Source: Trueperaceae bacterium | GTDB taxonomy: Bacteria; Deinococcota; Deinococci; Deinococcales; Trueperaceae | DNA length: 64,000 nt | Assembly: GCA_965213705.1 (NCBI GenBank) | Contig: OZ243913.1 | Location: 832,001-896,000 of the forward strand | Direction of reading: 5' to 3' | Part shown: piece by piece, positions 1 to 25,856 of the stretch | How positions within the stretch are numbered: position 1 is the first letter of the stretch | Layout: every line of letters starts with the position of its first letter | Program-made: the position numbers and the translations under genes | The notes under the pieces: model-generated | Seen by the model: the letters and a program-made list of their open reading frames with translations, nothing else | Told to the model about the DNA's origin: nothing | Database searches by the model: none

Positions 1-1188
1 CCCTTTCGTTCGCAAGTCTGTGAGTTCGCCGTCGGAAAGGCCGAGCAACGACCCCAACACTTCATCGGTGTGCTGTCCCAAAAGCGGCGGCGGCGCGTAA
101 CCGTCGTCGTTCGTGGCGGACAGCTTGATGGGGTTGCCGGGCATCTTGACGCTGCCCCCCTCGGGGTGTTCGACCTCGACGACCATGTTGCGCGCGACGA
201 CTTGCGGGTCGCTCAAGGCCTGCTCGAGGGTGTTCACGGGCGCGCAGGGAATCCGCGCCTTGCGCAGTTTGCTCAGCCAGTGAGCTTGTGTAAGAGTGCG
301 GAAAACCTCGCCCAACTTTTCGTTAATGAGGTCCTGGTTGTGCCAGCGTCCGGGCTGCTCCCGGTTTTCTTCGGTGTCTAAGTCGGGAAGCTCGAGCACG
401 TCCATCAGGTTCGCCCAAAAGTTGTCGGTGATGACCGCGACGATGATGTAGCCGTCGCTGCACGCGAACGTGTTGTAGGGCACGTGGACGAAGTGGGCGT
501 TGCCGAGCTTGTCGGGCACGTTGCCGGACAGGTGGTACATCGTCGCCATGTAGTTCAAGAGGCTGATTTGCGCGTCCAGCATAGAAATATCGACGTGTTG
601 CCCCTGCCCCGTCGTTTCCCTGGCTAAAAGCGCCGCGAGGACGCCGACGACCCCCATCAGTCCGCCGCCCAGGTCGCCTATCGGGATGCCCGAGCGGGTC
701 GGCGGGCCGCCCGGCTGCCCGGTGATGCTCATGCCGCCGCCCACCGCCTGCGTGACCATGTCGAAGGCGGGCTGACGCGTGTCGGGGCCGGTCTCGCCAA
801 AACCCGTAATCGTGTAGGTGACGATGCGCGGGTTGACCTCGGACAGGTGGGCGTGGTCGATGTTGAGGCGCTTCGTGACGCCCGCGCTGAAGTTGTCCAG
901 GACGACGTCCGCGTGTTTGACAAGGTCGTAAAACAGCGCCAGGCCGCGCTCGTCTTTGAGGTTGAGGGTCACGCTTTTTTTGTTGCGGTTCAGCGTCAAA
1001 AAGTACGCGCCCATGCCGTGCAGGCTGTTGTCGGGGTCGTCCGCTAACAGGCGGCGGGTGCCCTCGCCCGTGCCGGGCGGCTCAATCTTGAGGGTTTCCG
1101 TGCCTAAGTCGGCGAGCATCATCCCGGCGTAGGGGCCGGAGAGCATGTGGGTCAGGTCGAGCAGGACGGTCCCGGCGAGTGGTTTCAA
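1..1188 (-). CDS. Class III (CaiB/BaiF) CoA-transferase, 3' end runs off window
   Basis: Not in ORF track (no stop in window). Manual translation from TTG 1188: MKPLAGTVLLDLTHMLSGPYAGMMLADLG...NRNKKSVTLNLK...PPLLGQHTDEVL. Confidence 0.9.
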   Translation of the reverse strand, partial: MKPLAGTVLLDLTHMLSGPYAGMMLADLGTETLKIEPPGTGEGTRRLLADDPDNSLHGMGAYFLTLNRNKKSVTLNLKDERGLALFYDLVKHADVVLDNFSAGVTKRLNIDHAHLSEVNPRIVTYTITGFGETGPDTRQPAFDMVTQAVGGGMSITGQPGGPPTRSGIPIGDLGGGLMGVVGVLAALLARETTGQGQHVDISMLDAQISLLNYMATMYHLSGNVPDKLGNAHFVHVPYNTFACSDGYIIVAVITDNFWANLMDVLELPDLDTEENREQPGRWHNQDLINEKLGEVFRTLTQAHWLSKLRKARIPCAPVNTLEQALSDPQVVARNMVVEVEHPEGGSVKMPGNPIKLSATNDDGYAPPPLLGQHTDEVLGSLLGLSDGELTDLRTKG

Positions 1189-1225
1189 ACGGTGACTCCC
1201 TAGTGATGGCTCCTTGAATGATATA

Positions 1226-1237
1226 ATGTTATAACAT
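1226..1237. promoter_or_regulatory. Putative GntR/HutC operator, perfect palindrome ATGTTATAACAT
   Basis: In the divergent intergenic region between the CoA-transferase and gntR, overlapping TATAAT; fits the GT-N-TA-N-AC HutC-type core. Confidence 0.75.
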
Positions 1238-1275
1238 CTAGGCGGATAGTTATACGCGCTCAGCCAAAGGACGCC

Positions 1276-1998
1276 ATGACCCAGATTGACCGCAGTTCTC
1301 CGTTGCCCCTCTACTCGCAGCTCAAGGCAATTTTGCTCGAGCGGCTCAGGCAGGAGTGGCAGCCGGGGCAGCTGATACCGGGCGAGAGTGCGCTCGAGAG
1401 CGCCTACGGCCTCAGCCGGATTACCGTGCGGCAGGCGCTCGCCGAACTGGTCAACGACGGCTACTTGTACCGCCAGCGCGGCCGCGGTACCTTTGTCAGG
1501 CATCAAAAATTCACCCACGACCCGGCGCGGCGCTTGGCGCTGACCGACACTATGCGGCAACAGGGCGTCACGCCGGGCTGGCGCGTGCTGGGCAGCGGTC
1601 CCTGCGAGGCGACGGACGGGTTGGCGCACATGCTCGGCATAGGGACGGGCTCGAGCATCTTTATCCTGAAACGCTTGCGCCTGGTCAACGAGGAAGTTAT
1701 CGGCTACCACGTCGCTTATGTGCCGGGGGCGCAAGCCGAGCACATCGACCCGGAGGCGTTAGACCGGGAAGGGTCGCTGCACTACCTGCGCCACGTGCCC
1801 GGCATGGCGGGCAGTAGAGCGCACCGGACCCTGGAGGCGCAGGGCGCGAGCGAAGTTGTCGCCAGACACTTAGGTATTCAAGCAGACGACCCCGTGTTGC
1901 ACATCGAGCGCGTCACCGTAGCGGCGGACGGCAGCCCTATCGAACTTTTGAGCGCCGCTTACCGGGGTGACCGCTTCAGGTACACCCTCTCTATTTAG
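1276..1998 (+). CDS. GntR family (HutC/UTRA) transcriptional regulator
   Basis: PLYSQLK..IPGESAL..YGLSRITVRQAL..RGRGTFV wHTH; UTRA C-terminus (YRGDRFRY). Confidence 0.95.
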   Translation: MTQIDRSSPLPLYSQLKAILLERLRQEWQPGQLIPGESALESAYGLSRITVRQALAELVNDGYLYRQRGRGTFVRHQKFTHDPARRLALTDTMRQQGVTPGWRVLGSGPCEATDGLAHMLGIGTGSSIFILKRLRLVNEEVIGYHVAYVPGAQAEHIDPEALDREGSLHYLRHVPGMAGSRAHRTLEAQGASEVVARHLGIQADDPVLHIERVTVAADGSPIELLSAAYRGDRFRYTLSI

Positions 1999-2009
1999 TG
2001 AAAGGAGGT

Positions 2010-2095
2010 AGTACCGAGTACCGAGTAAAAAGTACCGCGAAAAGGCGCGAAAGTGCCGCCCTCGTTGTTTGTTACTCGAGCCTCGTTACTCACTC
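2010..2095. repeat. Heptamer (GTACCGA/TACTCGG) intergenic repeat patch
   Basis: agtaccgagtaccgagtaaaaagtaccg; same unit at 12510-12567, 32728-32877, 36918-37060, 49199-49234, 57751-57808. Confidence 0.7.
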
Positions 2096-2098
2096 TCA

Positions 2099-2587
2099 AT
2101 GGTAGATGAAAAAATGACGACGCCCTACGGCATGGACTTGAAAGTCGACTACGGCGAAGCGCGCCACCGCCCCTACCAGTGTTTTATGGGCCGCTGGGAA
2201 GGTTTGTGCAAAACGTTCACGGCGCGCGGCGAGTTTTTGGAGTCCACCGCCGTCCACATGAACGTGTTTTGGAAGGACGCAAATACCTGGCATTTACACG
2301 AACACTTCGAAAACCTGTTTGAAGTGGGCGAGACGGTGTTTCACAGCGACATCCACGTCGAGGGCAAATATTGCCACTCCAAAAACGACATGGTGACGAT
2401 TACCGGCAGCGAACTCACCCCCTACAACTACGTGTTCACCATCGACTCTCAAGTGACCAAAACCCTCGTCTACAACAACCACTACTTTTTAGACCCCGAC
2501 ACGCGGCGCATCATCACCCACAAAACGCGCGGCGGCGAGACGCATATTTACCAGATTCAGGACTTCGCCCGCGTGGTGCGGCCCTAA
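2099..2587 (+). CDS. Hypothetical protein, probable lipocalin/DUF3598-like beta-barrel
   Basis: FMGRWEG GxW motif followed by a beta-strand pattern; operon position; start uncertain (2099 or 2114). Confidence 0.7.
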   Translation: MVDEKMTTPYGMDLKVDYGEARHRPYQCFMGRWEGLCKTFTARGEFLESTAVHMNVFWKDANTWHLHEHFENLFEVGETVFHSDIHVEGKYCHSKNDMVTITGSELTPYNYVFTIDSQVTKTLVYNNHYFLDPDTRRIITHKTRGGETHIYQIQDFARVVRP

Positions 2588-2620
2588 CGGCCTTTTTCGG
2601 GAGACAAGTGTGAGAGACCC

Positions 2621-3439
2621 GTGATTGTTCAAACCGCGCCCGAGGGCGAAGCTCATTTTGTAGTTCTGCAAGCCGACCACGCTCGAGCTTCGGGGCAGTT
2701 GGCGCTGGCCTTCGGGAACGCGGATTTCGGCGAACTCTATCCGAAAGACCTCATGGAGTTCGTCGTCGCGCACCACGACGAGGGTTGGACGCCGGTTGAC
2801 GCGGAGGTCAACCGGGACGAACGTACCGGCCTGCCCTACCACCTGACGCAGACGCCGCTGCCGGACTTGGTCCGCACGGGCAACCTCACGCCCGACTTCA
2901 ACGAGGCGCGACATCCGTTTTGCGGCGTTATCTCGAGTATGCACTTTTACGGCCTTTACCACGGGCGCTACGGCTTGTCGGACAAACTCTTCATCGACAC
3001 CCTGACCGACGAGCACAAACCGCTGGTCGACGACCTGTTGAGCGGCGAACTGGCGCGGCAGCAACGCCTCAAAAAACAGCTTAGGGCCGACGGTCACGGG
3101 GACTGGGCGCAGGACGACTTTTTGTTTCACAATTACAAGTTGTTACAATTTTTCGACACGCTCTCGCTCTACTTTCACATGGTTCACGCAAAGGCTCGAG
3201 CCGAGGCGACGTTCCAAAACCTGCCGAGGGGTTTGGGCGACGACGTAACGGTGACGGTCAGGCCGGTGAGCAAAAACGCCTACGGGATAAGCCCCTGGCC
3301 GTTTGGGGAAGAGGCGCTCGAGTTCACCACCGCCGGCCGTTACCTCAAACCGCAACCCGCGTCGGTCGACCTCGCCGACGTGTTTCACGCAAAGCGGCTC
3401 GAGACCCAGACCGTCACGCTCCTACCGGGGCGCGGATGA
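2621..3439 (+). CDS. DUF3891 family protein
   Basis: QADHARASGQLALAFGN...HHDEGW...SMH...LLQFFDTLSL motifs. Confidence 0.85.
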   Translation: MIVQTAPEGEAHFVVLQADHARASGQLALAFGNADFGELYPKDLMEFVVAHHDEGWTPVDAEVNRDERTGLPYHLTQTPLPDLVRTGNLTPDFNEARHPFCGVISSMHFYGLYHGRYGLSDKLFIDTLTDEHKPLVDDLLSGELARQQRLKKQLRADGHGDWAQDDFLFHNYKLLQFFDTLSLYFHMVHAKARAEATFQNLPRGLGDDVTVTVRPVSKNAYGISPWPFGEEALEFTTAGRYLKPQPASVDLADVFHAKRLETQTVTLLPGRG

Positions 3440-3463
3440 CCGGCCCCCGATGACTGGACCCCG

Positions 3464-4387
3464 ATGAGCACCGACAAAAGCTTCAGCCAGGGTGTCGGGC
3501 AGTGGCTCGGCACCGCGGAGGTGTTTGACGGCGCGGGCGCTTTTTTAGGCAACGCGACGGACAAGCGGCACGTGCAGCGGCAAACGGACGAGCAGCGCGT
3601 CCGCATCGACCTCTCCTTTGTCGGCCCGTTCAAGTTCGCGGGGCACTATACAATAGCCGACCACGGGTCGCACCGGCTCTACGAAGGCCCCGCCAACGTC
3701 GGCTACGCCGAAACGCTGAGCGACGGGCTCATCGACGCGAACGCCTACTGGCCCGTCACGGGGCTGACGCAACGCTTTTTCCTGATGGTTCTACCCGGCG
3801 GCGACAAACAGGTGTCCCTGGCGCTGATGTCGCGCGGCGAGCAGCTTTTATATGTCGTGGTGGGCGAATACAACCGCGTGACCGAAGAAATCGGTCCGGT
3901 GCCGCCGGGCTTTGTCAACGGCACCTCGTTCGACCTTGCGGGCGACCCCACGGCGGGGCGGGGTACGGTGCTGCTGCACCGTCCGGGGACGTGGCGGGGA
4001 ACGCTGACGAGCCTGGACGAAAAGCTCGAGGCCGCCGGAGAGAGTTCTTACAGTGAGACCGTCAGCAGGAGAGAAGGAAAGCTGAGGGTTAGCGTCGAGG
4101 GCTCAACGCTCGACCCGGAACCCCGTGAGTTTGAGTTGAAGACCGAGGGCGCGCTCGCTTGGGTGCCTGCCAAAGACGAAGGCCTAGAGATTGCGGGTTC
4201 CTACAGCGTGAGCGGCGGGCGGGCGCTCTCAGGGCAGTTCCACCACCTGGCGAAAGCGCTGCGCGTGTGGCGGCGTGAAGTGGTGAGTCACGACGGGACG
4301 CTCAAGGCCGTGCTCCACACTTGGTACCGGGGCGGCGTGCGCGTGGGCGTGGGGTTCGGCGTGTTGGCGTTCGAGGCCGCCCCGTGA
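3464..4387 (+). CDS. Hypothetical two-domain beta-barrel-like protein
   Basis: Two GxW motifs (VGQWLG, PGTWRG); stop overlaps start of next gene. Confidence 0.7.
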   Translation: MSTDKSFSQGVGQWLGTAEVFDGAGAFLGNATDKRHVQRQTDEQRVRIDLSFVGPFKFAGHYTIADHGSHRLYEGPANVGYAETLSDGLIDANAYWPVTGLTQRFFLMVLPGGDKQVSLALMSRGEQLLYVVVGEYNRVTEEIGPVPPGFVNGTSFDLAGDPTAGRGTVLLHRPGTWRGTLTSLDEKLEAAGESSYSETVSRREGKLRVSVEGSTLDPEPREFELKTEGALAWVPAKDEGLEIAGSYSVSGGRALSGQFHHLAKALRVWRREVVSHDGTLKAVLHTWYRGGVRVGVGFGVLAFEAAP

Positions 4388-5229
4388 GCAAAGACGGCTT
4401 CATGGGCGCTTGGCGGGTGAGCGAGTACGTCCACGACCCGGACGGCTGTTTCGTCGGCGTGGTGCGGCAGCGGCGGGAGTTGGAGCGGCTCGAGAACGGC
4501 TACCTCCGCGTGACGCAGCGCTGCGCGCCGGACGCGGCGCTGGCCCGGCATCCTATGGGGCGCTTTGCCGGCACGTGGGTCTTCGACCTCAGCGTGGACG
4601 GACCCGCACGGCTCTACCACGGGCCGGACGTGGTGGGCTCGGGCTTCGCTTGGGGCGAAGGCGCGCTGACGGGGCGCGGGCTGTGGCCCCGTTTTGGACA
4701 CAACTTCACCTCTTTCGCCGTCCTCGTCACGCCCGAGCGGCAGCTCACGGGCGGGCAGTTCTTCGACGCCTCGCAGATGGTCGCCAACGTCGTCGGCGTC
4801 GCGGTGCCGGAGGTATGCGGGCAGTGGCCCGAACTGACCGGGGTAACTCGAGCCGGTGACGTCGCCGCTCGTTGGGTCGGCACCAAGCGCAGGGTCGACC
4901 CGGCGGGCACCGTTCTCTTTGAGGACAAAGTCGAGCGGCGCTATGACGGACAAACTTTTCAGGAAGGGGATTTTCGCCTCTATCTGACCCCCGCCCGAAC
5001 CAAGCTCGAGTGCCGGGGTACCCTGGCCGACGCGAACACACAAGGTCTCGCCAAGCAAACAGGGCCGCTGCTCGAGGGCGAACTCGTCCTGGACGCCCGC
5101 CGGCTGCTCACGTTCAAAGAAGTCCTCGACGCCGAAGCAGGCCACCTCGTCAGCCTGCGCCGCCTGTACAAAGACCAGCAACTCGACCATGTCGAAGTCT
5201 TCCGCCTGAGACCGAAGGGAAAAGCATGA
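4384..5229 (+). CDS. Hypothetical two-domain beta-barrel-like protein
   Basis: GTG 4384 overlaps upstream TGA; FMGAWRV and ARWVG motifs; shares RLYxGP..VG.G.A motif with upstream gene. Confidence 0.7.
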   Translation: MSKDGFMGAWRVSEYVHDPDGCFVGVVRQRRELERLENGYLRVTQRCAPDAALARHPMGRFAGTWVFDLSVDGPARLYHGPDVVGSGFAWGEGALTGRGLWPRFGHNFTSFAVLVTPERQLTGGQFFDASQMVANVVGVAVPEVCGQWPELTGVTRAGDVAARWVGTKRRVDPAGTVLFEDKVERRYDGQTFQEGDFRLYLTPARTKLECRGTLADANTQGLAKQTGPLLEGELVLDARRLLTFKEVLDAEAGHLVSLRRLYKDQQLDHVEVFRLRPKGKA

Positions 5230-6149
5230 TGACGTCGGAACCCGTCCCGAGCCTGCCCCAAACCGCCGAGATTGTCGAAGTGGGTTTGCGCGACGGGTTT
5301 CAGACGCTGCAGAAACCGGTCCCGCTCGAGTTGAAGCTCGAGCTTATCCATATCCTGATTGACGCGGGCGTGAAGCACATCCAAGTCACTTCCTTCGTTC
5401 ACCCCAAGCGCGTGCCGCAGATGGCGGACGCCGAAGAATTATGCGCGGCCTTACCCAACGCGCCGGGGGTCGAGTACAGCGGCTTGGTCTTGAACCTAAA
5501 AGGCGTCGAGCGGGCGCTCGCGGCGGGGCTCAAAGCCCTCGACATGGGCGTGGCGGCGACCGAGAGCTTAAGCCGGCGCAACGCCAACACCTCGGTCGCC
5601 GAGGGCATGGCGCAGATGGGCGACATGGCGCGGACGGCCAAAACCGCGGGCGTCCGGGTTCGCGCCGGGATTCAGACCGCCTTTGGCTGCGCCTACGAGG
5701 GCGAAGTGCCTCAGGAGAGAGTTGTGGACTTGGTGACGCAAACCTTGGACATGGACGTCGACGAACTCGCCCTGTCCGATTCGACCGGCATGGCGAACCC
5801 GTTGCAGGTTGAACGGATGCTCACCGCGCTGCGCCCCCTGGCGGGCGACGTCGAAATCGTCTTGCACCTTCACGACACGCGCGGCCTGGGGCTCGCCAAC
5901 GTTTACGCGGCGCTCCGCCACGGCGTGACCAAGTTCGACACGGCCTTCGGCGGTCTGGGCGGCTGTCCCTTCATCGTCGGGGCGAAAGGCAACATCGCCA
6001 CCGAAGACACGCTCAACCTGATGGCGGAGCTGGGGGTGGCGACGGGGGTGGACATCGGCAAAATCGCGGGACTGTCGAGGCGGCTCGAGGCCTTCCTCGA
6101 CACCCCGCTGCCCGCCAAGCTCCATCACCTTTTGAAAGGCAGCGCGTAA
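5226..6149 (+). CDS. HMG-CoA lyase family enzyme (DRE-TIM)
   Basis: IVEVGLRDGFQ, SFVHPKRVPQMAD, LHLHDTRG, GGLGGCPF..GAKGNIATED. Confidence 0.93.
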   Translation: MMTSEPVPSLPQTAEIVEVGLRDGFQTLQKPVPLELKLELIHILIDAGVKHIQVTSFVHPKRVPQMADAEELCAALPNAPGVEYSGLVLNLKGVERALAAGLKALDMGVAATESLSRRNANTSVAEGMAQMGDMARTAKTAGVRVRAGIQTAFGCAYEGEVPQERVVDLVTQTLDMDVDELALSDSTGMANPLQVERMLTALRPLAGDVEIVLHLHDTRGLGLANVYAALRHGVTKFDTAFGGLGGCPFIVGAKGNIATEDTLNLMAELGVATGVDIGKIAGLSRRLEAFLDTPLPAKLHHLLKGSA

Positions 6150-6152
6150 GCC

Positions 6153-7547
6153 GTGCCTGCTGAAGCTACCCTCGAGCCCACCGACGTCGCCACAGATATT
6201 GTCGTCGTCGGCGGTGGCGGTTGCGGTTTGACAGCGGCTTTGGCGGCGGCGCAACTCGGGGCGCGGGTGACGGTGTTGGAAAAGTTGGCCGAAACCCACG
6301 GCAACACCGGGCGCTCGGGCGGCATGGTTCCGGCGGCGGGCACGCGTTTTCAGCGGGCGGCGGGCGTCGAAGAGGACGCTGCGGCCTTTGCCGAAGACGT
6401 GTTGCGCAAAAACGGCCACACCTCCGACCTCGAGACCACCTTGCACCTGTGCCGGGTTTCGAAAGTCCTGGTCGAGTGGCTGGTGGACGAGGTCGGAATA
6501 GACCTCGTTTTTATCGACGACTTCAAGTATCCGGGGCACACCCAGTTTCGGATGCACGCACCGCCGAGCCGCACCGGGGCGGCGCTCGTCCAAGACTTGC
6601 GCCGCGCCGCCGACGCCGCGCCGAACGTCACCCTGTTGACCGGGTCGCCCGCGCTGGGACTCGTCGAAGACAAGTCGGGTGGGGTGCGCGGGGTTCGGCT
6701 TGCCCGGGGTACGCTCGCCGCGCAAAAAGTCATCTTGGCGAACAACGGCTTCGCAGGCAACCCGGAGATGGTGCGGCGTTACTGCCCCGACATAGAAAAC
6801 GCTCTTTACTTCGGCGGCGCGGGCAACACGGGCGAAGGCATCGCGTGGGGGCAGGCCCTGGGGGCGGAACTCGCCTTTATGGACGCTTACCAGGCGCACG
6901 CTTCGGTGGCGACGCCGGGCAACGTCCTCATCACTTACTCGCTCATTATGGAGGGTGGTGTCCAGGTCAACAGGGCGGGCGAGCGCTTCGGCAACGAGGC
7001 CGCGGGCTACTCCGAACACGCGCTGGCGGTGTTGGGACAAGAGGGCGGCGAGGTTTGGGACGTTTACGGCGAGACGCAGCACCGCTTGGGGCTGAAGTTC
7101 GCGGACTACCGGGCGGCGCTGGCGCTCGGCGTCGTCCTTCGGGCTGACACCCTGCGGGACTTGGCGGGGCAGATGGCGGTGAGTACGGAGGCGCTCGAGA
7201 CCACCCTCGCCGACTACCACGCCGCTGCCGACGGCGAGGTAGAAGACAAGTTCGGACGCCGGGAATGTCAGCGGCTCGCCGCACCCTTTTACGCCGTCAA
7301 GGTCACCGGGGCGCTCTTTCACACGCAGGGCGGTTTGAGGGTTGACAAAGTGGCGAGGGTTGTGCGCTTCGACGGCACGCCCATTCCCAACCTCTACGCC
7401 GGGGGCGGCGTTGCCGCCGGCATCAGCGGACACGGCCCCGGCGGGTACTTGTCGGGCAACGGCCTGCTCACCGCGCTCGGCTACGGGCTGCTCGCCGGGC
7501 GGCACGCGGCGAGCACGTTGGCCCCGGAAATGCGGGGGCCGGGATGA
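6153..7547 (+). CDS. FAD-dependent oxidoreductase (FAD_binding_2; TcuA/flavocytochrome fumarate reductase-like)
   Basis: VVVGGGGCG Rossmann motif, LFHTQGGLRVD, NLYAGG, YLSGNGL. Confidence 0.88.
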   Translation: MPAEATLEPTDVATDIVVVGGGGCGLTAALAAAQLGARVTVLEKLAETHGNTGRSGGMVPAAGTRFQRAAGVEEDAAAFAEDVLRKNGHTSDLETTLHLCRVSKVLVEWLVDEVGIDLVFIDDFKYPGHTQFRMHAPPSRTGAALVQDLRRAADAAPNVTLLTGSPALGLVEDKSGGVRGVRLARGTLAAQKVILANNGFAGNPEMVRRYCPDIENALYFGGAGNTGEGIAWGQALGAELAFMDAYQAHASVATPGNVLITYSLIMEGGVQVNRAGERFGNEAAGYSEHALAVLGQEGGEVWDVYGETQHRLGLKFADYRAALALGVVLRADTLRDLAGQMAVSTEALETTLADYHAAADGEVEDKFGRRECQRLAAPFYAVKVTGALFHTQGGLRVDKVARVVRFDGTPIPNLYAGGGVAAGISGHGPGGYLSGNGLLTALGYGLLAGRHAASTLAPEMRGPG

Positions 7548-7605
7548 CTAGCTTGTTTTGCGGAAGATCCGTGTCATAGTAAACAAAACCCACTAGGAGG
7601 ACGTG

Positions 7606-8781
7606 ATGAAAAAACTGGTTTTACTCGTTTTGCTGCTCACCCCCGCTTTCGCCCAGGTGCAAGTCGGCGGCATCCACCCGCTCACGGGCGGGCTCGCCGC
7701 CGACGGCGTGCAGATGGACAACGCTATTCGGATGGCGATTGAAGAGGTCAACGCCGCCGGGGGCGCAGGCGGGTTGACGTTCGAGTACCTCGCCGCCGAC
7801 TCGACCGGCTCACCCGAGGTCGGCCAGACCGAGGCCGAACGCCTCATCAACGAGGGCGCGGACGTGCTCATCGGTACGTTTCAGTCGTCGGTGACCGCCA
7901 ACGTCGCCGCCATCGCCGAGCGTTCAAAAGTTCCGTTGGTCGTCGACGTGGCCGTGGCCGACGCGATTCTCGACCAAGGGTACACCTACACCTTTCGCAT
8001 CCAGCCCAACGCCACCTCGATGGGGGTGAATGGTGCCCGCTTTTTGAAAGCCTTGGCCGAGGCGAGCGGCGAAGAGGTCGGCAGCGTCGTCTACTTGTTC
8101 GAAAGCGCCACGGGTTACGGGAGCAGCGTGAAAGACGCCTTCGTCGCCGAGGCGGCGAGTTTAGGCATCGAAGTCCTGGGCGAAGTCGGCTACGAACCTT
8201 TCAGCCTCACCGACCTCACCACCGAAATGACCCGCATCAACGCCCTGCAGCCCGACGTGCTGGCGGCGACGGGTTACTACAACGACGGTCTCATCGCCGC
8301 GCAAAACGCCGAAGACGTGCTCTTGAACGTCAAGGGTATTTACGGCGTGGCGCAGGGCACCTACGACGTGCCGCAGTTCGTCACCGACTTCGGCGACTCG
8401 GCGCAGTGTTTTATGGACAGCAACTACCACTGGGACGCTTCAAACCCCGAGGCGGTGGCGGTGCGCGAGAAGTTCGAAGCGACCTACGGCGAAGCCATGC
8501 GCACCTCGGCGATTATGGCTTACCAGGCCGTGTACGTCGTCGCCGACGCGGTCGAGCGCGCGGGCGAGGCCGACCCCGTCACGATTCGGGACGCGCTCGC
8601 GGCGACCGACTACGCCGGGCACATCCTGCCCTACGCCGGACCCATTCAGTTCGACGAAACGGGCGAAAACGTCAACGCGGTGCCCGTGGTGATGCAGGTG
8701 CAAGACGGCGCGATTTACCAGGTCTACCCGCCGGAGGTGGCGGAGCGGGAGCCGATTTTCCCCTGTGTGGCGTGGGAGTAG
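7606..8781 (+). CDS. Liv-type ABC transporter substrate-binding protein
   Basis: Signal peptide, HPLTGGLAADG, IEEVNAAGG, RBS GGAGG. Confidence 0.92.
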   Translation: MKKLVLLVLLLTPAFAQVQVGGIHPLTGGLAADGVQMDNAIRMAIEEVNAAGGAGGLTFEYLAADSTGSPEVGQTEAERLINEGADVLIGTFQSSVTANVAAIAERSKVPLVVDVAVADAILDQGYTYTFRIQPNATSMGVNGARFLKALAEASGEEVGSVVYLFESATGYGSSVKDAFVAEAASLGIEVLGEVGYEPFSLTDLTTEMTRINALQPDVLAATGYYNDGLIAAQNAEDVLLNVKGIYGVAQGTYDVPQFVTDFGDSAQCFMDSNYHWDASNPEAVAVREKFEATYGEAMRTSAIMAYQAVYVVADAVERAGEADPVTIRDALAATDYAGHILPYAGPIQFDETGENVNAVPVVMQVQDGAIYQVYPPEVAEREPIFPCVAWE

Positions 8782-8793
8782 TGGCGAGGCGGA

Positions 8794-9997: not shown

Positions 9998-11001
9998 GCG
10001 CGCGACTCACGACGAACCGCGACTACCTCATTCTGGGCGGGCTGACCCTGGGGCTGCTCGTGTTGCCTTTTTTTACAAACTCGTTTCAGCTCAGTCTCGC
10101 CGTCCTCGTGCTCCACTTCGCGCTGCTCGGGGCGGCCTGGAACGTCATGGGCGGCTACGCGGGGCAGTTCTCGTTCGGGCACGCGGCGTTTTACGGCATC
10201 GGCGCGTACACCTCGACCATCCTGTTGACCAAGCTCGGTGTCAGTCCTTGGCTGGGGATGCTGGCGGGGGCGGCCTTGGCGGCGCTCTTTGGCGCGGGGA
10301 TGGGCTACTTGACGTTTCGCTACGGCCTCAAAGGGCCTTATTTTGCGCTGGCGACGTTCGCGTTCGCCGAGATGCTGCGGCTCATCGCCAACGAGTGGGG
10401 CTTTATCGAGGGCTCGGTCGGCGTCCACCTGCCGCTCGTCGGCGGCGACTCGTGGGCGCGGCTCCAGTTCGAGGCGACGCCGCGCAACTACTACTTCGCG
10501 GTGCTCGTTTTATTTGTGTTCGTTTACCTCGTCCAGATTGCCGTGGTCCACAGCAAGTTCGGCTACTACCTGCAAGCCGTCCGCGAGGACGAGGTCGCCG
10601 CCGCCGCGCTGGGTGTCAACCTGATGCGTTACAAGGTCGGGGCGGTGGCGCTGAGCGGGGCGTTGACGGCGCTGGGCGGCTCGTTTTTCGCGCACTACTT
10701 TTTGTTCATCAGCCCAGAAATCGTCTTCGGCGCGGCCATTTCCATCGACATTTTGCTGGCCCCCATCGTCGGCGGGGCGGGGACGGTGTGGGGTCCCTTT
10801 ATCGGCGCGCTGTTCCTGACGCCGCTGGGCGAGGTCTCGAGACGCCTCATCCGCACGCCGCCGGAGTTTTTAAGCTTTATCCAGGGGCGCTCAGGCTTGG
10901 ACGTGATGCTCTTCGGGGCCATCCTTATCGTCGTCATCATCTACCTGCCGAACGGCGTCGCCGGGTTGGGACGGCGCTGGTGGCGCAGGCGGCGACCGTG
11001 A
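9994..11001 (+). CDS. Liv-type ABC permease (LivM-like)
   Basis: GTG 9994 overlap; WNVMGGYAGQFSFGHAAFYGIGAY, AVREDEVAA. Confidence 0.93.
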   Translation: MSARLTTNRDYLILGGLTLGLLVLPFFTNSFQLSLAVLVLHFALLGAAWNVMGGYAGQFSFGHAAFYGIGAYTSTILLTKLGVSPWLGMLAGAALAALFGAGMGYLTFRYGLKGPYFALATFAFAEMLRLIANEWGFIEGSVGVHLPLVGGDSWARLQFEATPRNYYFAVLVLFVFVYLVQIAVVHSKFGYYLQAVREDEVAAAALGVNLMRYKVGAVALSGALTALGGSFFAHYFLFISPEIVFGAAISIDILLAPIVGGAGTVWGPFIGALFLTPLGEVSRRLIRTPPEFLSFIQGRSGLDVMLFGAILIVVIIYLPNGVAGLGRRWWRRRRP

Positions 11002-11735
11002 CGGCGTTTTTGCAAGTGTCTAGCGTCAGCAAACGCTTCGGCGGCTTGACCGCGGTGAGGGACGTGAGTTTTGAACTGCGGCAGGGTGAAATCCTGGGGC
11101 TCATCGGGCCGAACGGGGCGGGCAAGTCGACCTTGTTCAGCATTGTCGGCGGAAGTTTGCAGCCGAGCGAGGGAACGGTCAGCTTCGAGGGCGCAACCCT
11201 CACGGGGCGGCCCCCCCACGACGTCTGTCGGCGGGGCGTGGCCCGCACCTTTCAAATCGTCAAGCCGTTCGCGGGGTTGCGGGTGGTGGACAACGTGATG
11301 GTGGGCGCGTTCAACCGGACGACGCGCGTCGCGGACAGCGAACGCAAAGCCCGCCGGATTTTAGAGTTCGTCGGGCTGGCCGACCGCGCCGAGCGGCCCG
11401 CTTTCTCGCTCACCACGGCGGGGCGCAAACGGCTCGAGCTGGCTCGCGCCCTCGCCACCGAGCCCAAACTGCTGCTGCTCGACGAGGTGATGGCGGGCCT
11501 CACCCCAACCGAGAGCCGCGGCATCGTCGAGTTGCTGCACCGGGTGCGCGACACGGGCGTGACGCTGCTGGTGACCGAACACGTCATGAAGGCCATCATG
11601 GCGCTGTCCGACCGGGTGGCGGTGTTGCATCACGGCGAACTCATCGCCCTGGGCACGCCCAAAGAGGTCACCGAAACCCCGGAAGTCGTCGAGGCTTATC
11701 TGGGCAAAAGGCGTGCGGACGGGGTGGGTGCGTAG
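10998..11735 (+). CDS. ABC ATPase (LivG-like)
   Basis: KRFGGLTAV, GPNGAGKST, LLLDEVMAGL. Confidence 0.93.
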   Translation: MTAFLQVSSVSKRFGGLTAVRDVSFELRQGEILGLIGPNGAGKSTLFSIVGGSLQPSEGTVSFEGATLTGRPPHDVCRRGVARTFQIVKPFAGLRVVDNVMVGAFNRTTRVADSERKARRILEFVGLADRAERPAFSLTTAGRKRLELARALATEPKLLLLDEVMAGLTPTESRGIVELLHRVRDTGVTLLVTEHVMKAIMALSDRVAVLHHGELIALGTPKEVTETPEVVEAYLGKRRADGVGA

Positions 11736-12440
11736 GTGTTGCGGCTCGAGGGACTTTATGGCGGCTACGCCGACGTGAACGTGTTGGAAGACGTGTCGCT
11801 CACGGTCGAAAGGGGTGAAATCGTGGCGCTGCTGGGCGCGAACGGCGCGGGCAAGACGACCACGCTGCGCACCGTTTCGGGGCTGCACCGGGCGCGACGG
11901 GGCACGGTGGTGTTCGAGGAAGAGGCCGTCCAGCACTGGCCCTCGCACCGCATCGTCGCCGCAGGTTTGGTCCAAGTCGCCGAGGGACGCAAGCTGTTCG
12001 CGCACATGACGGTAACCGAAAACCTGGAAATGGGCGCGTTCGGACGCCGCGTCAGGGTGGGTCGCAAGGAGACCATGGCGGAGGTGTTCGACCTGTTCCC
12101 GCGTTTAAGAGAGCGCCGCAAACAGTTCGCCGGGACGCTCTCGGGGGGCGAGCAGCAGATGTTGGCCGTGGGCCGCGCCCTCATGACGCGGCCCAAACTG
12201 CTCATGCTGGACGAGCCCTCGCTGGGCCTCGCGCCGAAAATCGTCGAGGACATTTTCGAGGTCGTGCGGCGCGTCAACGGCGCGGGCGTCAGCGTGTTAA
12301 TCGTCGAGCAGAACGCAGTGCAAACCCTGGAATTGGCCCACCGGGCTTACGTGCTCGAGAACGGCCACATCACCCTGAGCGGGTCCGGCGACGCCCTGCT
12401 GCAAGACCCGCGCATCCGCACGGCGTACTTGGGACTTTGA
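11736..12440 (+). CDS. ABC ATPase (LivF-like)
   Basis: GANGAGKTT, LSGGEQQM, LDEPSLGLAP. Confidence 0.94.
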   Translation: MLRLEGLYGGYADVNVLEDVSLTVERGEIVALLGANGAGKTTTLRTVSGLHRARRGTVVFEEEAVQHWPSHRIVAAGLVQVAEGRKLFAHMTVTENLEMGAFGRRVRVGRKETMAEVFDLFPRLRERRKQFAGTLSGGEQQMLAVGRALMTRPKLLMLDEPSLGLAPKIVEDIFEVVRRVNGAGVSVLIVEQNAVQTLELAHRAYVLENGHITLSGSGDALLQDPRIRTAYLGL

Positions 12441-12572
12441 TTCGGGACCGTGAGAGAGGTTGGAGACCAACTTGTATCTTGAAAGGAGAAAAGTAACGAG
12501 GAACGAATTCCGAGTAGCAGGGCGCTTCGTGCCCCACTCGGTACTCGGTACTCAGCACTCGGTACTGCCCTT

Positions 12573-13823
12573 ATGACCCTAGCCGAAAAAATCATCTCGA
12601 CACACGCGGGCCGCGAGCTTTACGCGGGCGACATCGCCGTGGTGGCTGTAGACGGCGCGATGGCGACCGACACGACCGCGCCCTTAGCCATCCAAGCTTT
12701 TCGGGAGATGGGCGGAACAAAACTCTTCGACCCAGAAAAGTTCTTTTTGGTTCTCGACCACGCCGTCCCCGCCCCCAACGAGCGCATCGCCAACCTGCAC
12801 ACCATGATGCGGGCGTTCGCCCGCGACACGGGCTGCAAACTCTACGACGTGGGCGAGGGCATTTGCCACCAACTGATGGTGGACCATGACCACGTGCGGC
12901 CCGGCGACGTTTTCGTGGGCGCGGACTCGCATACGCCGACCTACGGGGCTTTGGGCGCGTTCGCCGTGGGCATGGGCTCGACCGACACGGCGGGCGTGAT
13001 GCTGACCGGGAAAACCTGGCTTAAAGTCCCGCAGACGATTCGCCTGGAACTCAACGGCACCGTCAAACCGGGCGTCAGCGCCAAGGACGTCATTCTGTAC
13101 CTCGTCGGGCGCTTGGGTATTGCAGGCGCGACCTACGACGCGGTCGAGTTTACGGGCGAGGTCGTCCACCCTATGACCTTAGCGAGCCGCATGACCCTTG
13201 CCAACATGGTCGCCGAAATGGGCGCGAAGGCGGGGTTGGTGGACACGTCCGAGTTGGAGACGCCCTACGACTTCGAACGCCTCGCCCCCGACGCCGACGC
13301 GACTTACAAAGCGCGTCACGTTCTGGACTTGAGCGACCTGCGCCCCCAAGTGGCGCTGCCCCACTCGCCCGAAAACGTGCGCGACATCGACGAGGTTATA
13401 GGCCGCAAAATCGACGCCGCCTTTATCGGCTCGTGTACCAACGCGCGGCTCGAGGACTTTCACGCCGCCGCGCAGGTGCTCAAAGGCCGCAAGCTCGCCC
13501 CCGGCGTGCGCCTCATCATCGCCCCGGCCTCGCGCAACGTGTTCGACGCGGCGCTGCGAGACGGCACGGTCGAGACCCTGTCCGCGGCGGGGGCGACCTT
13601 TATCACCTCGGGCTGCGGGCCGTGCGTGGGCACGCACCAGGGCGTGCCGGGCGACGGGGAGGCGGTCATCTCGAGCACCAACCGCAACTTCCGCGGGCGG
13701 CAGGGCAACCCGAACGCCGACGTTTACTTAGCCTCGCCCGCCGTGGTCGCGGCGGCGGCGGTGGCGGGCGAGATTGTCGACCCCGCCGACCTCTTGGCCC
13801 GTGACAGCGGGGTGCTGGCGTGA
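12573..13823 (+). CDS. LeuC/HacA/DmdA-type aconitase-family hydratase, large subunit
   Basis: MTLAEKI, EGICHQ, GADSHT, FIGSCTNAR, GCGPCVG (three Fe-S Cys), STNRNFRGR. Confidence 0.93.
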   Translation: MTLAEKIISTHAGRELYAGDIAVVAVDGAMATDTTAPLAIQAFREMGGTKLFDPEKFFLVLDHAVPAPNERIANLHTMMRAFARDTGCKLYDVGEGICHQLMVDHDHVRPGDVFVGADSHTPTYGALGAFAVGMGSTDTAGVMLTGKTWLKVPQTIRLELNGTVKPGVSAKDVILYLVGRLGIAGATYDAVEFTGEVVHPMTLASRMTLANMVAEMGAKAGLVDTSELETPYDFERLAPDADATYKARHVLDLSDLRPQVALPHSPENVRDIDEVIGRKIDAAFIGSCTNARLEDFHAAAQVLKGRKLAPGVRLIIAPASRNVFDAALRDGTVETLSAAGATFITSGCGPCVGTHQGVPGDGEAVISSTNRNFRGRQGNPNADVYLASPAVVAAAAVAGEIVDPADLLARDSGVLA

Positions 13824-14326
13824 AGCACCTGTTCGAGGGTACCGCGCACGTCTACGGCGACAACATAGACACCGACCGCATCATCCCCGGCAAGTACACC
13901 AAAACCCTCGACATGAGCCAGCTCGCCGCACACGTGTTGGAAGACCTGGACCCCCATTTTAGAACCAAGGTGAAAGCTGGCGACATGCTGGTCGCGGGCG
14001 ACAACTTCGGCTGCGGCTCGAGCCGCGAACAAGCGCCTATCGCCCTGCAGGCGGCGGGCGTGAGCGTCGTCGTCGCGCGCACTTTTGCGCGCATCTTTTA
14101 CCGGAACGCCATCAACATCGGGCTGCCGCTGGTCGAGGTGCCCGAGCACGACATAGAGGACGGCTCCGAGGTGCGGGTGGATTTGCTGGCGGGCGAGGTG
14201 CGCGACCTGGCGACCGGCCGCACCTACCGCGCGACCAGGATGCCCGAAGGAATGCTCGAGATTCTGAGCGCGGGCGGGCTCGTCTCGTATCTCAAAGAAC
14301 ACGGCGACTACGGAGGTGTCGCGTGA
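13820..14326 (+). CDS. LeuD/HacB-type hydratase small subunit
   Basis: GDNIDTDRIIPG, NFGCGSSREQA, FARIFYRNAINIGL. Confidence 0.93.
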   Translation: MKHLFEGTAHVYGDNIDTDRIIPGKYTKTLDMSQLAAHVLEDLDPHFRTKVKAGDMLVAGDNFGCGSSREQAPIALQAAGVSVVVARTFARIFYRNAINIGLPLVEVPEHDIEDGSEVRVDLLAGEVRDLATGRTYRATRMPEGMLEILSAGGLVSYLKEHGDYGGVA

Positions 14327-15516
14327 GCTTGCCCCTGGACGGCGTGCGGGTGCTCGAATTCTCCCACGCCGTGCTCGGCCCCGCCGCGGGCATGATTTTG
14401 GCCGACCTGGGCGCGGACGTTGTCAAAATTGAGCCCACCCCCGACGGCGACCCGACGCGCAGGCTCAAGGGGTTCGGCCAAGGGTATTTCCCGTACTTTA
14501 ACCGCAACAAAAAAAGCATCGTCGTGAACCTCAAAACCGACGAGGGTCGTGAGGTTGTTCGTAAACTGCTCGAGGACAGTGACGTTTTGCTCGAGAACTA
14601 CGGCCCCGGCACGATTGAGCGCCTCGGTCTCGGTTACGAAGCGCTCAAGGACGAATTTCCCAGGCTTGTCTTCTGTTCGCTCAAAGGGTTTTTACCCGGC
14701 CCCTACGAAAACCGCACCGCGCTCGACGAGGTGGTGCAGATGATGTCGGGATTGGCCTACATGACCGGCCCGCCGGGACAGCCCATGCGCGCGGGCGCCT
14801 CGGTCATCGACGTGATGACCGGGATGTACGGCGCGATGGCGGTGATTTTGGCGCTCAAAGAGCGCGACGCCTCGGGCGCGGGGCAGCTCGTCAAGACGGC
14901 GCTTTTTGAAACCGCCGCCTTTTTGATGGGCCACCACATGTCCACGTTTGTCATGTCCGGCGAGCCGCTGCCGCCCATGTCGGCGCGGGTGAGCGCCTGG
15001 GCTATCTATCACCAGTTTGAAACGCAGGACGACCAACTCATCTTTATCGGCGTGACCAGCGACAAGCAGTGGCCGCGCTTTTGCGAGGCGTTCGGGCGTG
15101 AGGACCTGCTGGCGGACGACCGCCTGACGACCAACAACGACCGCGTGGCGGCGCAGGACTGGTTGCTGCCCGAGTTGCGCGCGATGGTTTCAGGCTTGAC
15201 GCTTGCCGAGGCGGTGGCGCGTTGCGAGGCGGCGCAACTTCCCTTTTCGCCCGTCGCCCGCCCGGAAGACCTGTTCGACGACCCTCAACTCAACGAGGGG
15301 GGAAGTTTGTTGGCGACCACGTTTCCCAACGGCTTCAAAACCAAGATGCCTAAACTGCCCCTCGCGCTGGGTGGGCGCGACTTGGGTCTGAGGCTCGAGC
15401 CGCCGCAGGTGGGCGAGCACACCACAGCCGTTTTGCGCTCCATCGGCTATTCGGCGGAAGACATCGACAGGCTTGGGGCTCGAGGGGTTGTCACGACAGG
15501 AGGTAAGGATGGCTGA
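14323..15516 (+). CDS. Class III (CaiB/BaiF) CoA-transferase
   Basis: LDGVRVLEF..GPAAGMILADLGADVVKIE, NRNKKS, ASVID catalytic Asp region. Confidence 0.93.
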   Translation: MSLPLDGVRVLEFSHAVLGPAAGMILADLGADVVKIEPTPDGDPTRRLKGFGQGYFPYFNRNKKSIVVNLKTDEGREVVRKLLEDSDVLLENYGPGTIERLGLGYEALKDEFPRLVFCSLKGFLPGPYENRTALDEVVQMMSGLAYMTGPPGQPMRAGASVIDVMTGMYGAMAVILALKERDASGAGQLVKTALFETAAFLMGHHMSTFVMSGEPLPPMSARVSAWAIYHQFETQDDQLIFIGVTSDKQWPRFCEAFGREDLLADDRLTTNNDRVAAQDWLLPELRAMVSGLTLAEAVARCEAAQLPFSPVARPEDLFDDPQLNEGGSLLATTFPNGFKTKMPKLPLALGGRDLGLRLEPPQVGEHTTAVLRSIGYSAEDIDRLGARGVVTTGGKDG

Positions 15517-16975
15517 CTTGGACTTGCTCGTCAAAAACGTCCGCGTGGTGCGCCCGCACGGCAAGGGCGCGCAGAAGCTGGACCTGGGCGTCAAAGACGG
15601 CCGTTTCGTGCAGATAGGCGAAACGCTCACTGCGGGTGCAGCGGAGACCGTCGACGCGAACGGCTTGCTCGGTTTTCCCGGTGTGACCGACGCGCACACG
15701 CACATCGGTATTTACCAAGACGTCGGCAAAGACGCCGCCACCGAGTCGGCGGCGGCGGTCTCGGGCGGCGTGACGACGCTGCTGACCTACGTCCGCACCG
15801 GCAGTTTGTACCTAAACCGCCCCGGCCCCGTGCGCGAGTTTTTCCCCGAACTGCTCGCGGCCTCCGAAGGCAACTACCACTGCGACTACGGCTACCACAT
15901 TTCGCCTATCCAGGGCTCCCAAGTTGCCGAGATGGCTTACATGGCGACCGAGGCGGGCGCGCCCAACTTCGGCGAGATTTTCATGTTTTACGGCTCGCAC
16001 GGCCTTCACGGCGGCAGCGACGTGCAGCGGCAATGGCTGATGTTGGACGAGGGCGAGAGTTACGACCTGGCACACTTCGACCAGGTTTGCCGAGAAGCGG
16101 CGCGCTTGCAACGGGCGCACCCCGAACTCGAGCCCTACATCGCCGTAAGTTGGCACTGCGAACTGCCCGACCTGCTGCGCGAGTACGAAAAACGCGTTCA
16201 GGCAAGGGACGACCTCACCGGCCTCGCCGCCTACAGCGCCGCGCGCCCGCCCCACTGCGAAGCCCTGGGCGTCGCCACCGCCGGAGCGCTCGCGCATGAG
16301 GCCGGTTTGACGCGCATCAACATCCTCCACATCACCTCACGCGAGGCGATGGACGCGGCCCTGCGGCTGCGCGAAACGTATCCCGAGCTGGACGTGGGCT
16401 TGGAAGTCACCGCCGGGCACCTCTTGCTGGACACGACCTGCCACATGGGCGTGTTCGCCAAGGTCAACCCGCCCCTGCGCCCGCCCGAGCACCGCGAGTA
16501 CCTGTGGGAGCGCGTCAAGGACGGCACCTTGCAGTGGGCCATGACCGACCACGCCAACTGTCCCGAAAACCTGAAAGTCGCCGCCGACGACCCCGACAAC
16601 ATCTGGAAGGCCAAGGCGGGTTTCGGCGGCACCGACTACTTGTTGCCGGGGCTCTACAGCGAGGGGGCGAAGCGCGGCGTGAGTCCCAACCGCGTCGCCG
16701 AACTGGTCTGCTACAACCCCGCGCGGCGCTTCGGGCTGAACAACAAGGGCGACATCGACGTCGGGCTGGACGCCGACCTCGTGCTTTTAGACCCGGACGA
16801 GACCTGGACGATTCGCGGGGCGGACTCGCTCTCGGCGCAGGGTTACACGCCGTTCGAGGGGTTGGAGGTGACGGGCAGGGTCAAGAAAACGTTTTTGCGC
16901 GGTCAGCTTGTGTTTGACAACGGCAAGGTGCAAGGGACACCGAGCGGGCGGTATCAGAAGCGCCCGACGGGTTGA
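15509..16975 (+). CDS. Cyclic amidohydrolase (allantoinase/dihydropyrimidinase/dihydroorotase family)
   Basis: PGVTDAHTH, AAVSGGVTT, KVNPPLR, TDHA, NPARRFGL..KGDI..G.DADLV. Confidence 0.9.
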   Translation: MADLDLLVKNVRVVRPHGKGAQKLDLGVKDGRFVQIGETLTAGAAETVDANGLLGFPGVTDAHTHIGIYQDVGKDAATESAAAVSGGVTTLLTYVRTGSLYLNRPGPVREFFPELLAASEGNYHCDYGYHISPIQGSQVAEMAYMATEAGAPNFGEIFMFYGSHGLHGGSDVQRQWLMLDEGESYDLAHFDQVCREAARLQRAHPELEPYIAVSWHCELPDLLREYEKRVQARDDLTGLAAYSAARPPHCEALGVATAGALAHEAGLTRINILHITSREAMDAALRLRETYPELDVGLEVTAGHLLLDTTCHMGVFAKVNPPLRPPEHREYLWERVKDGTLQWAMTDHANCPENLKVAADDPDNIWKAKAGFGGTDYLLPGLYSEGAKRGVSPNRVAELVCYNPARRFGLNNKGDIDVGLDADLVLLDPDETWTIRGADSLSAQGYTPFEGLEVTGRVKKTFLRGQLVFDNGKVQGTPSGRYQKRPTG

Positions 16976-18895: not shown

Positions 18896-18919
18896 GAACC
18901 ACTTGGGCAGCTCGCCCGT

Positions 18920-23945: not shown

Positions 23946-25856
<1,911 letters not shown>

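Follow-up and report, generated by a model that had tools for sequence, protein, structure and literature searches.

We analysed a 64,000-nucleotide stretch of DNA (the window; G000:C1:832001-896000) from the genome of a Trueperaceae bacterium (4.25 Mb, 98% complete). Its left end carries a gene cluster with a GntR-type regulator, four conserved proteins of little-known families, a Liv-type importer, a LeuCD-type hydratase, an HMG-CoA-lyase-family enzyme, two class III CoA-transferases, a FAD oxidoreductase, and a cyclic amidohydrolase. This is a real, conserved, and undescribed catabolic cluster, and its chemistry is likely to run from a cyclic imide to lyase cleavage of a CoA ester. From sequence and gene neighborhood, we assign a probability of roughly 55% to the reading that the cluster catabolizes tetrapyrrole-derived imides (haematinic acid, methylethylmaleimide) to propionyl-CoA and 2-oxo acids. 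The proposed substrates likely include reduced succinimide forms and would derive from chlorophyll, haem, or bilins. Because most relatives of the cluster carry homologues of RCCR, a plant enzyme of chlorophyll breakdown, beside the same genes, it is likely the lower half of an undescribed route for pigment fragments.

Layout and conserved neighborhood of the cluster

Sixteen plus-strand open reading frames (ORFs) run from gntR (1276) to the amidohydrolase gene (16975), all as stop-free frames, and a class III CoA-transferase gene diverges from them (its start is at 1188 and its stop 8 bases beyond the window's left edge). Neighboring genes overlap at seven of the 15 junctions, by 4 nt in six cases and by 8 nt in the seventh; a further pair abuts, and another is separated by 3 nt. 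All 17 genes are intact, with catalytic residues kept in the hydratase, the lyase, both transferases, and the amidohydrolase. Contigs from two sequencing runs, made from the same sample and not independent, span 30 of 30 bins across window positions 1-20000, with no indel listed. The original prediction had described 16 co-oriented genes, a divergent CoA-transferase, and overlapping stop/start codons, all of which are real features of the locus, and its family names agree with the Pfam and NCBIfam profile matches to the window proteins from which our labels are taken. Its genes stand, but its extent does not, as the cluster continues for about 8.6 kb left of the window. The four proteins it left as unknowns are now partly assignable, three as calycin barrels (our u1 to u3, with u1 the weakest case) and one as a DUF3891 protein that may be HD-like.

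The features are listed below by window position. Locus counts refer to the neighborhoods of u2 homologues, the best 80 of 131 relatives, many of them cut short; the 80 loci are mostly from Anaerolineae, with others from Acidimicrobiales, Chloroflexus, Roseiflexus, and elsewhere.

1..1188, minus strand: class III CoA-transferase A (PF02515, E 3.5e-124; catalytic Asp in 34/35 homologues; 33/80 loci)
1217..1238, no strand: predicted GntR operator, a tandem palindrome of the TGTTATAACA type in the gap that separates the divergent genes
1276..1998, plus strand: GntR/HutC-type repressor with UTRA ligand domain (PF00392 and PF07702; 59/80 loci)
2099..2587, plus strand: u1, single calycin-type barrel, DUF3598_N/CpeS-like (74/80 loci)
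2621..3439, plus strand: DUF3891 protein, predicted HD-domain-like metalloenzyme (PF13030; 74/80 loci)
3464..4387, plus strand: u2, double calycin barrel, DUF3598/BFA1 fold by structure model (80/80 loci)
4384..5229, plus strand: u3, barrel protein, u2 paralogue by profile comparison (72/80 loci)
5226..6149, plus strand: HMG-CoA-lyase-family retro-Claisen lyase (NF004283 above cut-off; 45/80 loci)
6153..7547, plus strand: flavocytochrome-c/KstD-family FAD oxidoreductase, accessory, likely a desaturase (PF00890; 1/80 loci)
7603..8781, plus strand: Liv-type substrate-binding protein (PF13458; 1/80 loci)
8972-9997 and 9994-11001, plus strand: Liv-type permeases (PF02653 twice)
10998-11735 and 11736-12440, plus strand: Liv-type ATPases (PF00005 twice)
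12573-13823, plus strand: HacAB/DmdAB-type [4Fe-4S] hydratase, large subunit (LeuC; TIGR01343; 38/80 loci)
13820-14326, plus strand: HacAB/DmdAB-type hydratase, small subunit (LeuD; TIGR02087; 35/80 loci)
14323..15516, plus strand: class III CoA-transferase B (PF02515, E 1.6e-111; 35/80 loci)
15509..16975, plus strand: cyclic amidohydrolase, allantoinase/hydantoinase-like, likely an imidase (21/80 loci)
Left of the window, after CoA-transferase A: DUF296/PPC gene
Left of the window, C1:830822-831436: isochorismatase, maleamate-amidase-like, with Asp-Lys-Cys triad (24/80 loci)
Left of the window: DsbA-like gene, two DUF3598_N genes, and aldehyde dehydrogenase gene
Left of the window, L001:12662-13690 (G000:C1:826662-827690): nitrilase-like gene
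Left of the window: Dpp-type transporter with truncated binding protein (dppA)

The core u1-DUF3891-u2-u3 is near-invariant among the 80 loci, and what accompanies it points to tetrapyrroles. In the 52 loci of at least 15 kb, where genes were counted from BLAST clusters of raw ORFs, 47 hold an RCCR/bilin-reductase-family gene (second paralogue 47, RCCR proper 30), 47 a Rieske oxygenase, and 42 an esterase. A barrel-like protein and an SDR are further usual members of this upper module, which usually sits between u3 and the lyase; in the Trueperaceae genome, the u3 and lyase genes share 4 nt at that spot. The RCCR homologue matches PF06405 (6e-20) and plant RCCR (PDB 3agb, 3e-18). The second reductase is an RCCR paralogue (hhalign, 99.2%); searched against the PDB alone, it finds only HY2 (E 0.05). 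According to passages in PMC10151467, the RCCR/bilin-reductase fold is known from tetrapyrrole enzymes. Among the five long loci that lack RCCR, one belongs to a genome with the gene elsewhere, and RCCR genes were not seen in three genomes (completeness known for one). In a tree of u1, DUF3891, and u2 (70 rows, midpoint-rooted, several weak nodes), loci without RCCR are scattered among RCCR-bearing ones, which fits repeated loss. A survey of 301 evenly drawn Chloroflexota genomes, seed G254 among them, found u2 in 4. Three of these, and no other genome, have the second reductase, and amidohydrolase homologues of at least 51% occur in precisely these 4 genomes; 3 further homologues, more distant, lie in other genomes.

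A different set of upper genes surrounds the nitrilase-like protein, in which all 83 of 83 homologues carry Glu-Arg-Ser where the canonical nitrilase triad has Glu-Lys-Cys. This subfamily is widespread in metagenomes, distinct, and apparently unnamed. In its neighborhoods (the best 80 of at least 498 metagenome loci), we found aldehyde dehydrogenase in 43, CoA-transferase in 21, the lyase in 17, LeuD in 15, LeuC in 14 (two LeuCD types), DUF1838 in 12, isochorismatase in 10, a TonB receptor in 10, DUF3598-like genes in 9, and CpeT/CpcT family genes in 7 (representative E 7.8e-7). Two upper modules that differ in the bilin-related family they contain thus meet the same lower enzymes.

Those lower enzymes also recur as a unit in Haloferax volcanii pHV4, Natrinema, Acidiphilium, and other Trueperaceae. 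The unit comprises an isochorismatase, a ring-opening hydrolase, a CoA-transferase, a lyase, and LeuCD, and the FAD enzyme may or may not be part of it. Unrelated families take the ring-opening role from one unit to another (dihydroorotase-like, paired polysaccharide-deacetylase-like, hydantoinase A/B). Three Trueperaceae genomes have gntR-lyase-leuCD-transferase-amidohydrolase with no FAD gene, and one has fad-Liv-leuCD-transferase-amidohydrolase. The original prediction had argued for a cyclic-imide/alkyl-dicarboxylate logic and proposed neighborhood conservation as a check; the recurrence of the same lower set as a unit across taxa supports it. The complete module on Haloferax volcanii pHV4 (L167:5896-23956; HVO_RS04380-04460) adjoins an LLM flavin oxidoreductase, an NTF2 protein, and two MmgE/PrpD genes; no publication was found under six guessed old locus tags.

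A conserved predicted GntR operator links the RCCR and nitrilase modules. The motif precedes 48 of 53 gntR homologues, and with a matrix built from relatives other than genome G184, the predicted site at window 1217-1238 scores best in the genome (30.7 bits), followed by one at 19330-19351 (24.4 bits) and a third at 17.3 bits. The exact 10-bp palindrome occurs in the genome only at 19330-19351 and inside the 1217-1238 site. Predicted sites also precede DUF1838/nitrilase genes in G184 and Roseiflexus.

Barrel proteins and lower enzymes

The structure model of u2 (predicted local distance difference test score, pLDDT, 91.4) matches 2o62 (Z 20.4; root-mean-square deviation 3.8 over 248) and 5yvf (Z 20.1), so that u2 is predicted to share the fold of the DUF3598/BFA1 double beta-barrels (Z 20). 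The next rows top at 13.5; each u2 barrel resembles the single barrels of the bilin lyases CpcS/CpeS and CpcT/CpeT, nitrobindin, and UnaG (Z 9-13.5), but sequence identity to these known barrels is 6-15%, no lyase family model matched, and the fold shows no function. By hhalign, u3 matches the u2 profile (probability 88.7, E 2.6e-6). No Pfam match was found for u1, and its comparison with the u2 profile gave no significant match (probability 8.5). Its ESM Atlas features reach 0.94 to DUF3598_N clusters and 0.90 to a CpeS cluster, with a recognition value below threshold; the resemblance of u1 to DUF3598_N/CpeS suggested by these language-model features is thus weaker than the u2 and u3 results. 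For the DUF3891 protein (pLDDT 95.5), most top fold matches are HD domains, at Z of 6.5 or less, within noise for helical models, and the ESM Atlas returned only its own family. Residues H20, H52-D53, H98, H108, and D179, six candidate metal ligands, are invariant in 39 of 39 sequences, a pattern that may be akin to the PhnZ/MIOX-type diiron motif.

The hydratase belongs by score to the HacA/DmdA-type aconitase subfamily (TIGR01343, 527.9 against a cut-off of 385.7; TIGR02087, 206.3 against 108.95). It is of the short two-subunit type and keeps the Fe-S ligands Cys288/348/351, and the LEU2 and LysU models fall below cut-off (LEU2, 449.8 against 610.65). Its small-subunit loop, Y-T-K-T, aligns with Y-L-R-T of homoaconitase (2pkp) and Y-L-V-Y of an archaeal isopropylmalate isomerase (3vba), and GKYTKTL is present in all 30 loops found in related loci. 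The loop appears closer to homoaconitase than to the archaeal isomerase, which is suggestive only. Passages in PMC7308503 describe this substrate loop region, and PMC8184944 was a further source on it. We rejected a leucine-biosynthetic role for the pair given the LEU2 score and a separate leuC-leuD-leuB group at C1:2405629-2410813, so it is not the genome's only leucine isomerase, a concern attached to the original prediction. The absence of leuA and leuB from the locus, which that prediction had pointed out, holds as well; both lie elsewhere (leuA at C1:2652794-2654341, in an ilvB-ilvC-leuA group).

The lyase keeps its Arg-Asp, His-x-His, and Cys. Many of its homologues carry a fused flavin reductase (PF01613), which the lyase here lacks. 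Such a fusion lies at L030:7872-9323 and in many related loci, where the fused domain may serve Rieske or RCCR-like proteins; the copy here has neither the fusion nor Rieske and RCCR-like genes. For the amidohydrolase, all named families score below cut-off and the best PDB match is an allantoinase. Four His and the Asp are kept, and the bridging Lys position, Glu156 here, holds Lys in 16 of 19 sequences and Glu in 3. With equivalog scores below cut-off and Glu156 in place of the Lys bridge, we rejected allantoinase, dihydropyrimidinase, and dihydroorotase as assignments; the enzyme can presumably still work like an imidase. Having two transferases may allow both neutral and acidic side chains to be handled.

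The FAD enzyme and the Liv importer are accessory parts. Aligned to fumarate reductases 1qo8 and 1d4c, the FAD enzyme keeps both His and has Tyr at both Arg positions of the catalytic His/Arg/His/Arg set. It was rejected as a soluble fumarate reductase (flavocytochrome c3; TIGR01813, 237.9 against 285.45) and as the tricarballylate dehydrogenase TcuA (NF006130, 133 against 369; TIGR02485, 85 against 373), and no tcuB-like ORF is present among the 17 genes. The Liv binding protein is 71% identical to one beside fad-leuCD-ctB-amh in genome G185.

Proposed route, objections, and alternatives

In the route we propose, the Liv transporter would import an imide or half-amide, the FAD enzyme would desaturate reduced rings where needed, the amidohydrolase would open the imide ring, and the isochorismatase just left of the window would remove ammonia to leave a cis-dicarboxylate. 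Chemically, ring opening and deamidation of haematinic acid would yield 2-methyl-cis-homoaconitate, which fits a homoaconitase-family hydratase. The HacAB-type enzyme would then hydrate the cis-dicarboxylate, a CoA-transferase would activate the product, and HMG-CoA-lyase-like cleavage would give propionyl-CoA and 2-oxoglutarate, or glutaryl-CoA and pyruvate; the ethyl-methyl compound would give propionyl-CoA and 2-oxobutyrate. GntR would keep these genes repressed, and binding of a pathway intermediate would lift the repression. The part we hold most loosely is that u1 to u3, DUF3891, the nitrilase-like enzyme, and the aldehyde dehydrogenase may bind and cut intermediates of two to four pyrrole rings. 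According to passages in PMC12860425, chlorophyll breakdown is known to yield the monopyrroles haematinic acid and methylethylmaleimide.

The original prediction had outlined ring opening, desaturation, hydration, CoA activation, and cleavage to acetyl-CoA plus a 2-oxo acid. That logic survives, though not as a set complete within the window, as the half-amide hydrolase lies outside it. The FAD enzyme remains a likely desaturase, but the step is optional rather than required because its gene occurs in 1 of 80 loci and is absent from the same-genus copy. Acetyl-CoA is replaced, since disubstituted maleates would on chemical grounds give propionyl- or butyryl-CoA, and for the substrate, which it called unknown, the conserved context points to tetrapyrrole fragments as the class.

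More tentatively, the cluster family could be a missing bacterial route that mineralizes chlorophyll, haem, and bilins with two interchangeable upper modules, a reading that we think possible and would not yet favor. The modules might then be two RCCR genes with Rieske and esterase or, just as tentatively, the nitrilase-like Glu-Arg-Ser enzyme with DUF1838, VOC, and CpcT-like proteins. Calycin barrels and the DUF3891 dimetal enzyme could conceivably cut the bridges and release maleimides. Haematinic acid might pass through methylhomoaconitate and methylhomocitryl-CoA to propionyl-CoA and 2-oxoglutarate, and genomes with the lower module only (Haloferax volcanii) could perhaps cross-feed on monopyrroles.

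Several observations weigh against a tetrapyrrole substrate. The genome lacks RCCR, the second reductase, a matching esterase, CpeT, and DUF1838, in searches whose positive controls worked; PF06405 and both cluster RCCR profiles gave 0 matches in it, with positive profile controls. Its one Rieske match (34%) adjoins a nucleoside-type transporter. In the relatives, the Rieske protein (one representative) has Rieske and VanA_C domains with no PaO domain match (E up to 0.1), its best solved relatives being SxtDIOX/SxtT/NdmA, and the esterase matches PETases/cutinases, with no chlorophyllase among 60 of its 76 PDB matches. The loci are akin, so their counts are not independent. RCCR is found in 0 of the 80 nitrilase loci, no tetrapyrrole-type gene lies near the stand-alone lower modules of haloarchaea, Acidiphilium, and Trueperaceae, and four other Trueperaceae with lower genes are also without RCCR. 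Calycin barrels bind many ligands, and the LeuD loop is not diagnostic because the bacterial isopropylmalate isomerase 2hcu also has a basic residue (Lys) there. The genome's sole Rieske gene (L082:10634-11620; G000:C1:3055634-3056620), rejected as a displaced upper-pathway gene for its 34% identity and unrelated context, lies by a BMP-type nucleoside ABC transporter and is possibly a methylxanthine demethylase.

The same lower chemistry could instead act on another N-heterocycle or imide, on ring-fission products of alkylpyridines or pyrrole-carboxylates or on substituted succinimides or hydantoins, with the RCCR-like proteins and barrels acting there as well. The main argument for this is that many genomes have the lower module by itself, with no tetrapyrrole-type neighbors. 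The maleate-isomerase-like (Amdase) and FAD-monooxygenase genes of relatives, the similarity of their Rieske protein to SxtT/NdmA, and the best PDB matches of the isochorismatase, which include 4l07 and 3ot4 (presumably maleamate amidases of nicotine/nicotinate pathways), point the same way. RCCR-type and CpeT/CpcT families, however, reach the same lower module independently. CpeT/CpcT families are not known apart from tetrapyrroles, nor is the RCCR/bilin-reductase fold, the latter according to passages in PMC10151467. We consider this alternative rather unlikely. It is less likely still that an ancestral pigment-degrading cluster is eroding here into a scavenger of citraconate/methylsuccinate-type acids or amides, with the barrels as leftovers. 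Erosion would explain the 5'-truncated dppA, the VOC remnant, the lost DUF1838, DUF1330, and VOC genes, the second-operon remnant, and a same-genus copy with a broken-looking u2 and no adjoining nitrilase or aldehyde dehydrogenase gene, but not 17 intact genes with catalytic residues kept in the enzymes checked, an intact predicted operator, and u1, DUF3891, and u2 that are 80-87% identical to those of G184.

A lysine-biosynthetic homoaconitase, with the rest of the cluster incidental, is very improbable as the main reason for keeping LeuCD. The genome has lysW-lysX (G000:C1:2971633-2972748) and lacks dapB. No LysU match in it exceeds the cut-off, and besides the locus LeuD, its only NF010629 match, it has no homoaconitase-type small subunit. 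That match, however, scores 133.7 bits against a cut-off of 229, on which we rejected the pair as the Deinococcota homoaconitase LysTU, whereas a LysU-type match exceeds the cut-off in 21 of 41 genomes of the family. No homocitrate synthase passes its cut-off (TIGR02146, best 275.5 against 413.55, the matches being of LeuA/CimA length), and many taxa have LeuCD coupled to the CoA-transferase and the amidohydrolase. Moonlighting of LeuCD in lysine synthesis is possible.

Locus history, known systems, and significance

The locus is a reduced, mosaic copy of the conserved cluster, reduced because RCCR and the matching Rieske and CpcT genes are missing and deletions are seen, and mosaic because other Trueperaceae hold its lower genes in other combinations. 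At a deletion junction left of the window (L001:11234-12660), dppA without its first ~200 codons lies directly beside a VOC remnant and a small ORF that looks like an antitoxin gene. G184 has the complete stretch, including DUF1838, DUF1330, and two VOC genes, and a second Liv/VOC/FAD operon follows it; DUF1838, DUF1330, most of the two VOC genes, and the operator are lost from the genome here, so that the predicted site for the nitrilase operon went with the deletion. Two further features lie in the window:

18540..19285, minus strand: decayed second-operon remnant (Liv binding-protein N-terminus, small mobile-type piece, esterase C-terminal piece)
19330..19351, no strand: second predicted GntR operator, before the remnant, second-best site in the genome

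By tblastx, the remnant is 77% identical to the G184 binding protein and 58% to the alpha/beta hydrolase of nitrilase-module loci, and one contig bridges it with no differences. Its esterase piece is like the esterases of nitrilase-module loci L121, L107, and L141, which may resemble the methylesterase/pheophorbidase family. The same-genus copy has a broken-looking u2, no adjoining nitrilase or aldehyde dehydrogenase gene, and no FAD gene. In the host phylum, u2 was found in 2 of 251 genomes, besides the same-genus copy, a distribution that suggests gene transfer.

After the operon come DinB-family and APH-family genes (window 17035-18543), probably unrelated; G184 and G561 have the APH gene at this place too, and it was not found in the 80 u2 loci (10-kb flanks). 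Short GTACCGAG/CTCGGTAC-type repeats lie in intergenic gaps (window 2005-2040 and 12537-12570; also L001:11155-11235), and loose contig ends at such elements suggest a genome-wide repeat. Further right are ORFs labelled from their look in the sequence only, a phytoene-dehydrogenase-like FAD protein (21265-22968) and an arginine-decarboxylase-like ORF (23946-25856).

Parts of known systems recur in the cluster. With the plant pheophorbide a oxygenase (PAO)/phyllobilin pathway (RCCR/ACD2, PF06405, PDB 3agb/2zxk; PAO itself; chlorophyllase), its relatives share RCCR-family reductases, Rieske, esterase, and SDR. The plant route stops at stored linear tetrapyrroles, whereas the cluster goes on to imide, hydratase, CoA, and lyase steps; the genome here is without the upper genes, and the relatives' Rieske is without the PaO domain match. 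The dimethylmaleate hydratase DmdAB and dimethylmalate lyase act in nicotinate fermentation by Eubacterium barkeri, and LeuCD-type enzymes also hydrate maleate and citraconate. The cluster shares a HacAB/DmdB-family hydratase, which would act on a disubstituted maleate, but cleavage would proceed through a CoA ester and an HMG-CoA-lyase-family rather than isocitrate-lyase-family enzyme, and no nicotinate genes are at the locus. The (R)-citramalate enzymes of Chloroflexus (Sct/Ccl) likewise pair a class III CoA-transferase with an HMGL-family lyase on a 2-hydroxy-dicarboxylate, with matches at family level only; unlike the lyase here, the lyase homologue in the Chloroflexus cluster is a 470-aa flavin-reductase fusion. 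The imidase/half-amidase route of Blastobacter and the maleamate amidohydrolases NicF/Ami take unsubstituted imides or maleamate to succinate or fumarate. They share with the cluster a cyclic amidohydrolase followed by an isochorismatase-family amidase with an Asp-Lys-Cys triad, whereas the branched products here would need the hydratase-CoA-lyase steps. The original prediction had allowed that the locus might match a pathway already described, but we found no description of the cluster, nor of a catabolic pathway for maleimides, in the open-access literature (supplements aside; those of PMC10151467 may list RCCR-like sequences).

The microbial end steps of chlorophyll, haem, and bilin breakdown are largely open, and the formation of sedimentary maleimides is still incompletely understood according to passages in a 2026 paper (PMC12860425). 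The locus offers candidate enzymes, substrates, products, and a predicted operator, and Haloferax volcanii pHV4 provides a genetically tractable host with the lower module. The proposed route would be relevant to geochemistry, where maleimides serve as biomarkers, and to wastewater, for the removal of bile pigments. If true, it would give first functions to DUF3598-like barrels, DUF3891, DUF1838, and the Ser-for-Cys nitrilase subfamily.

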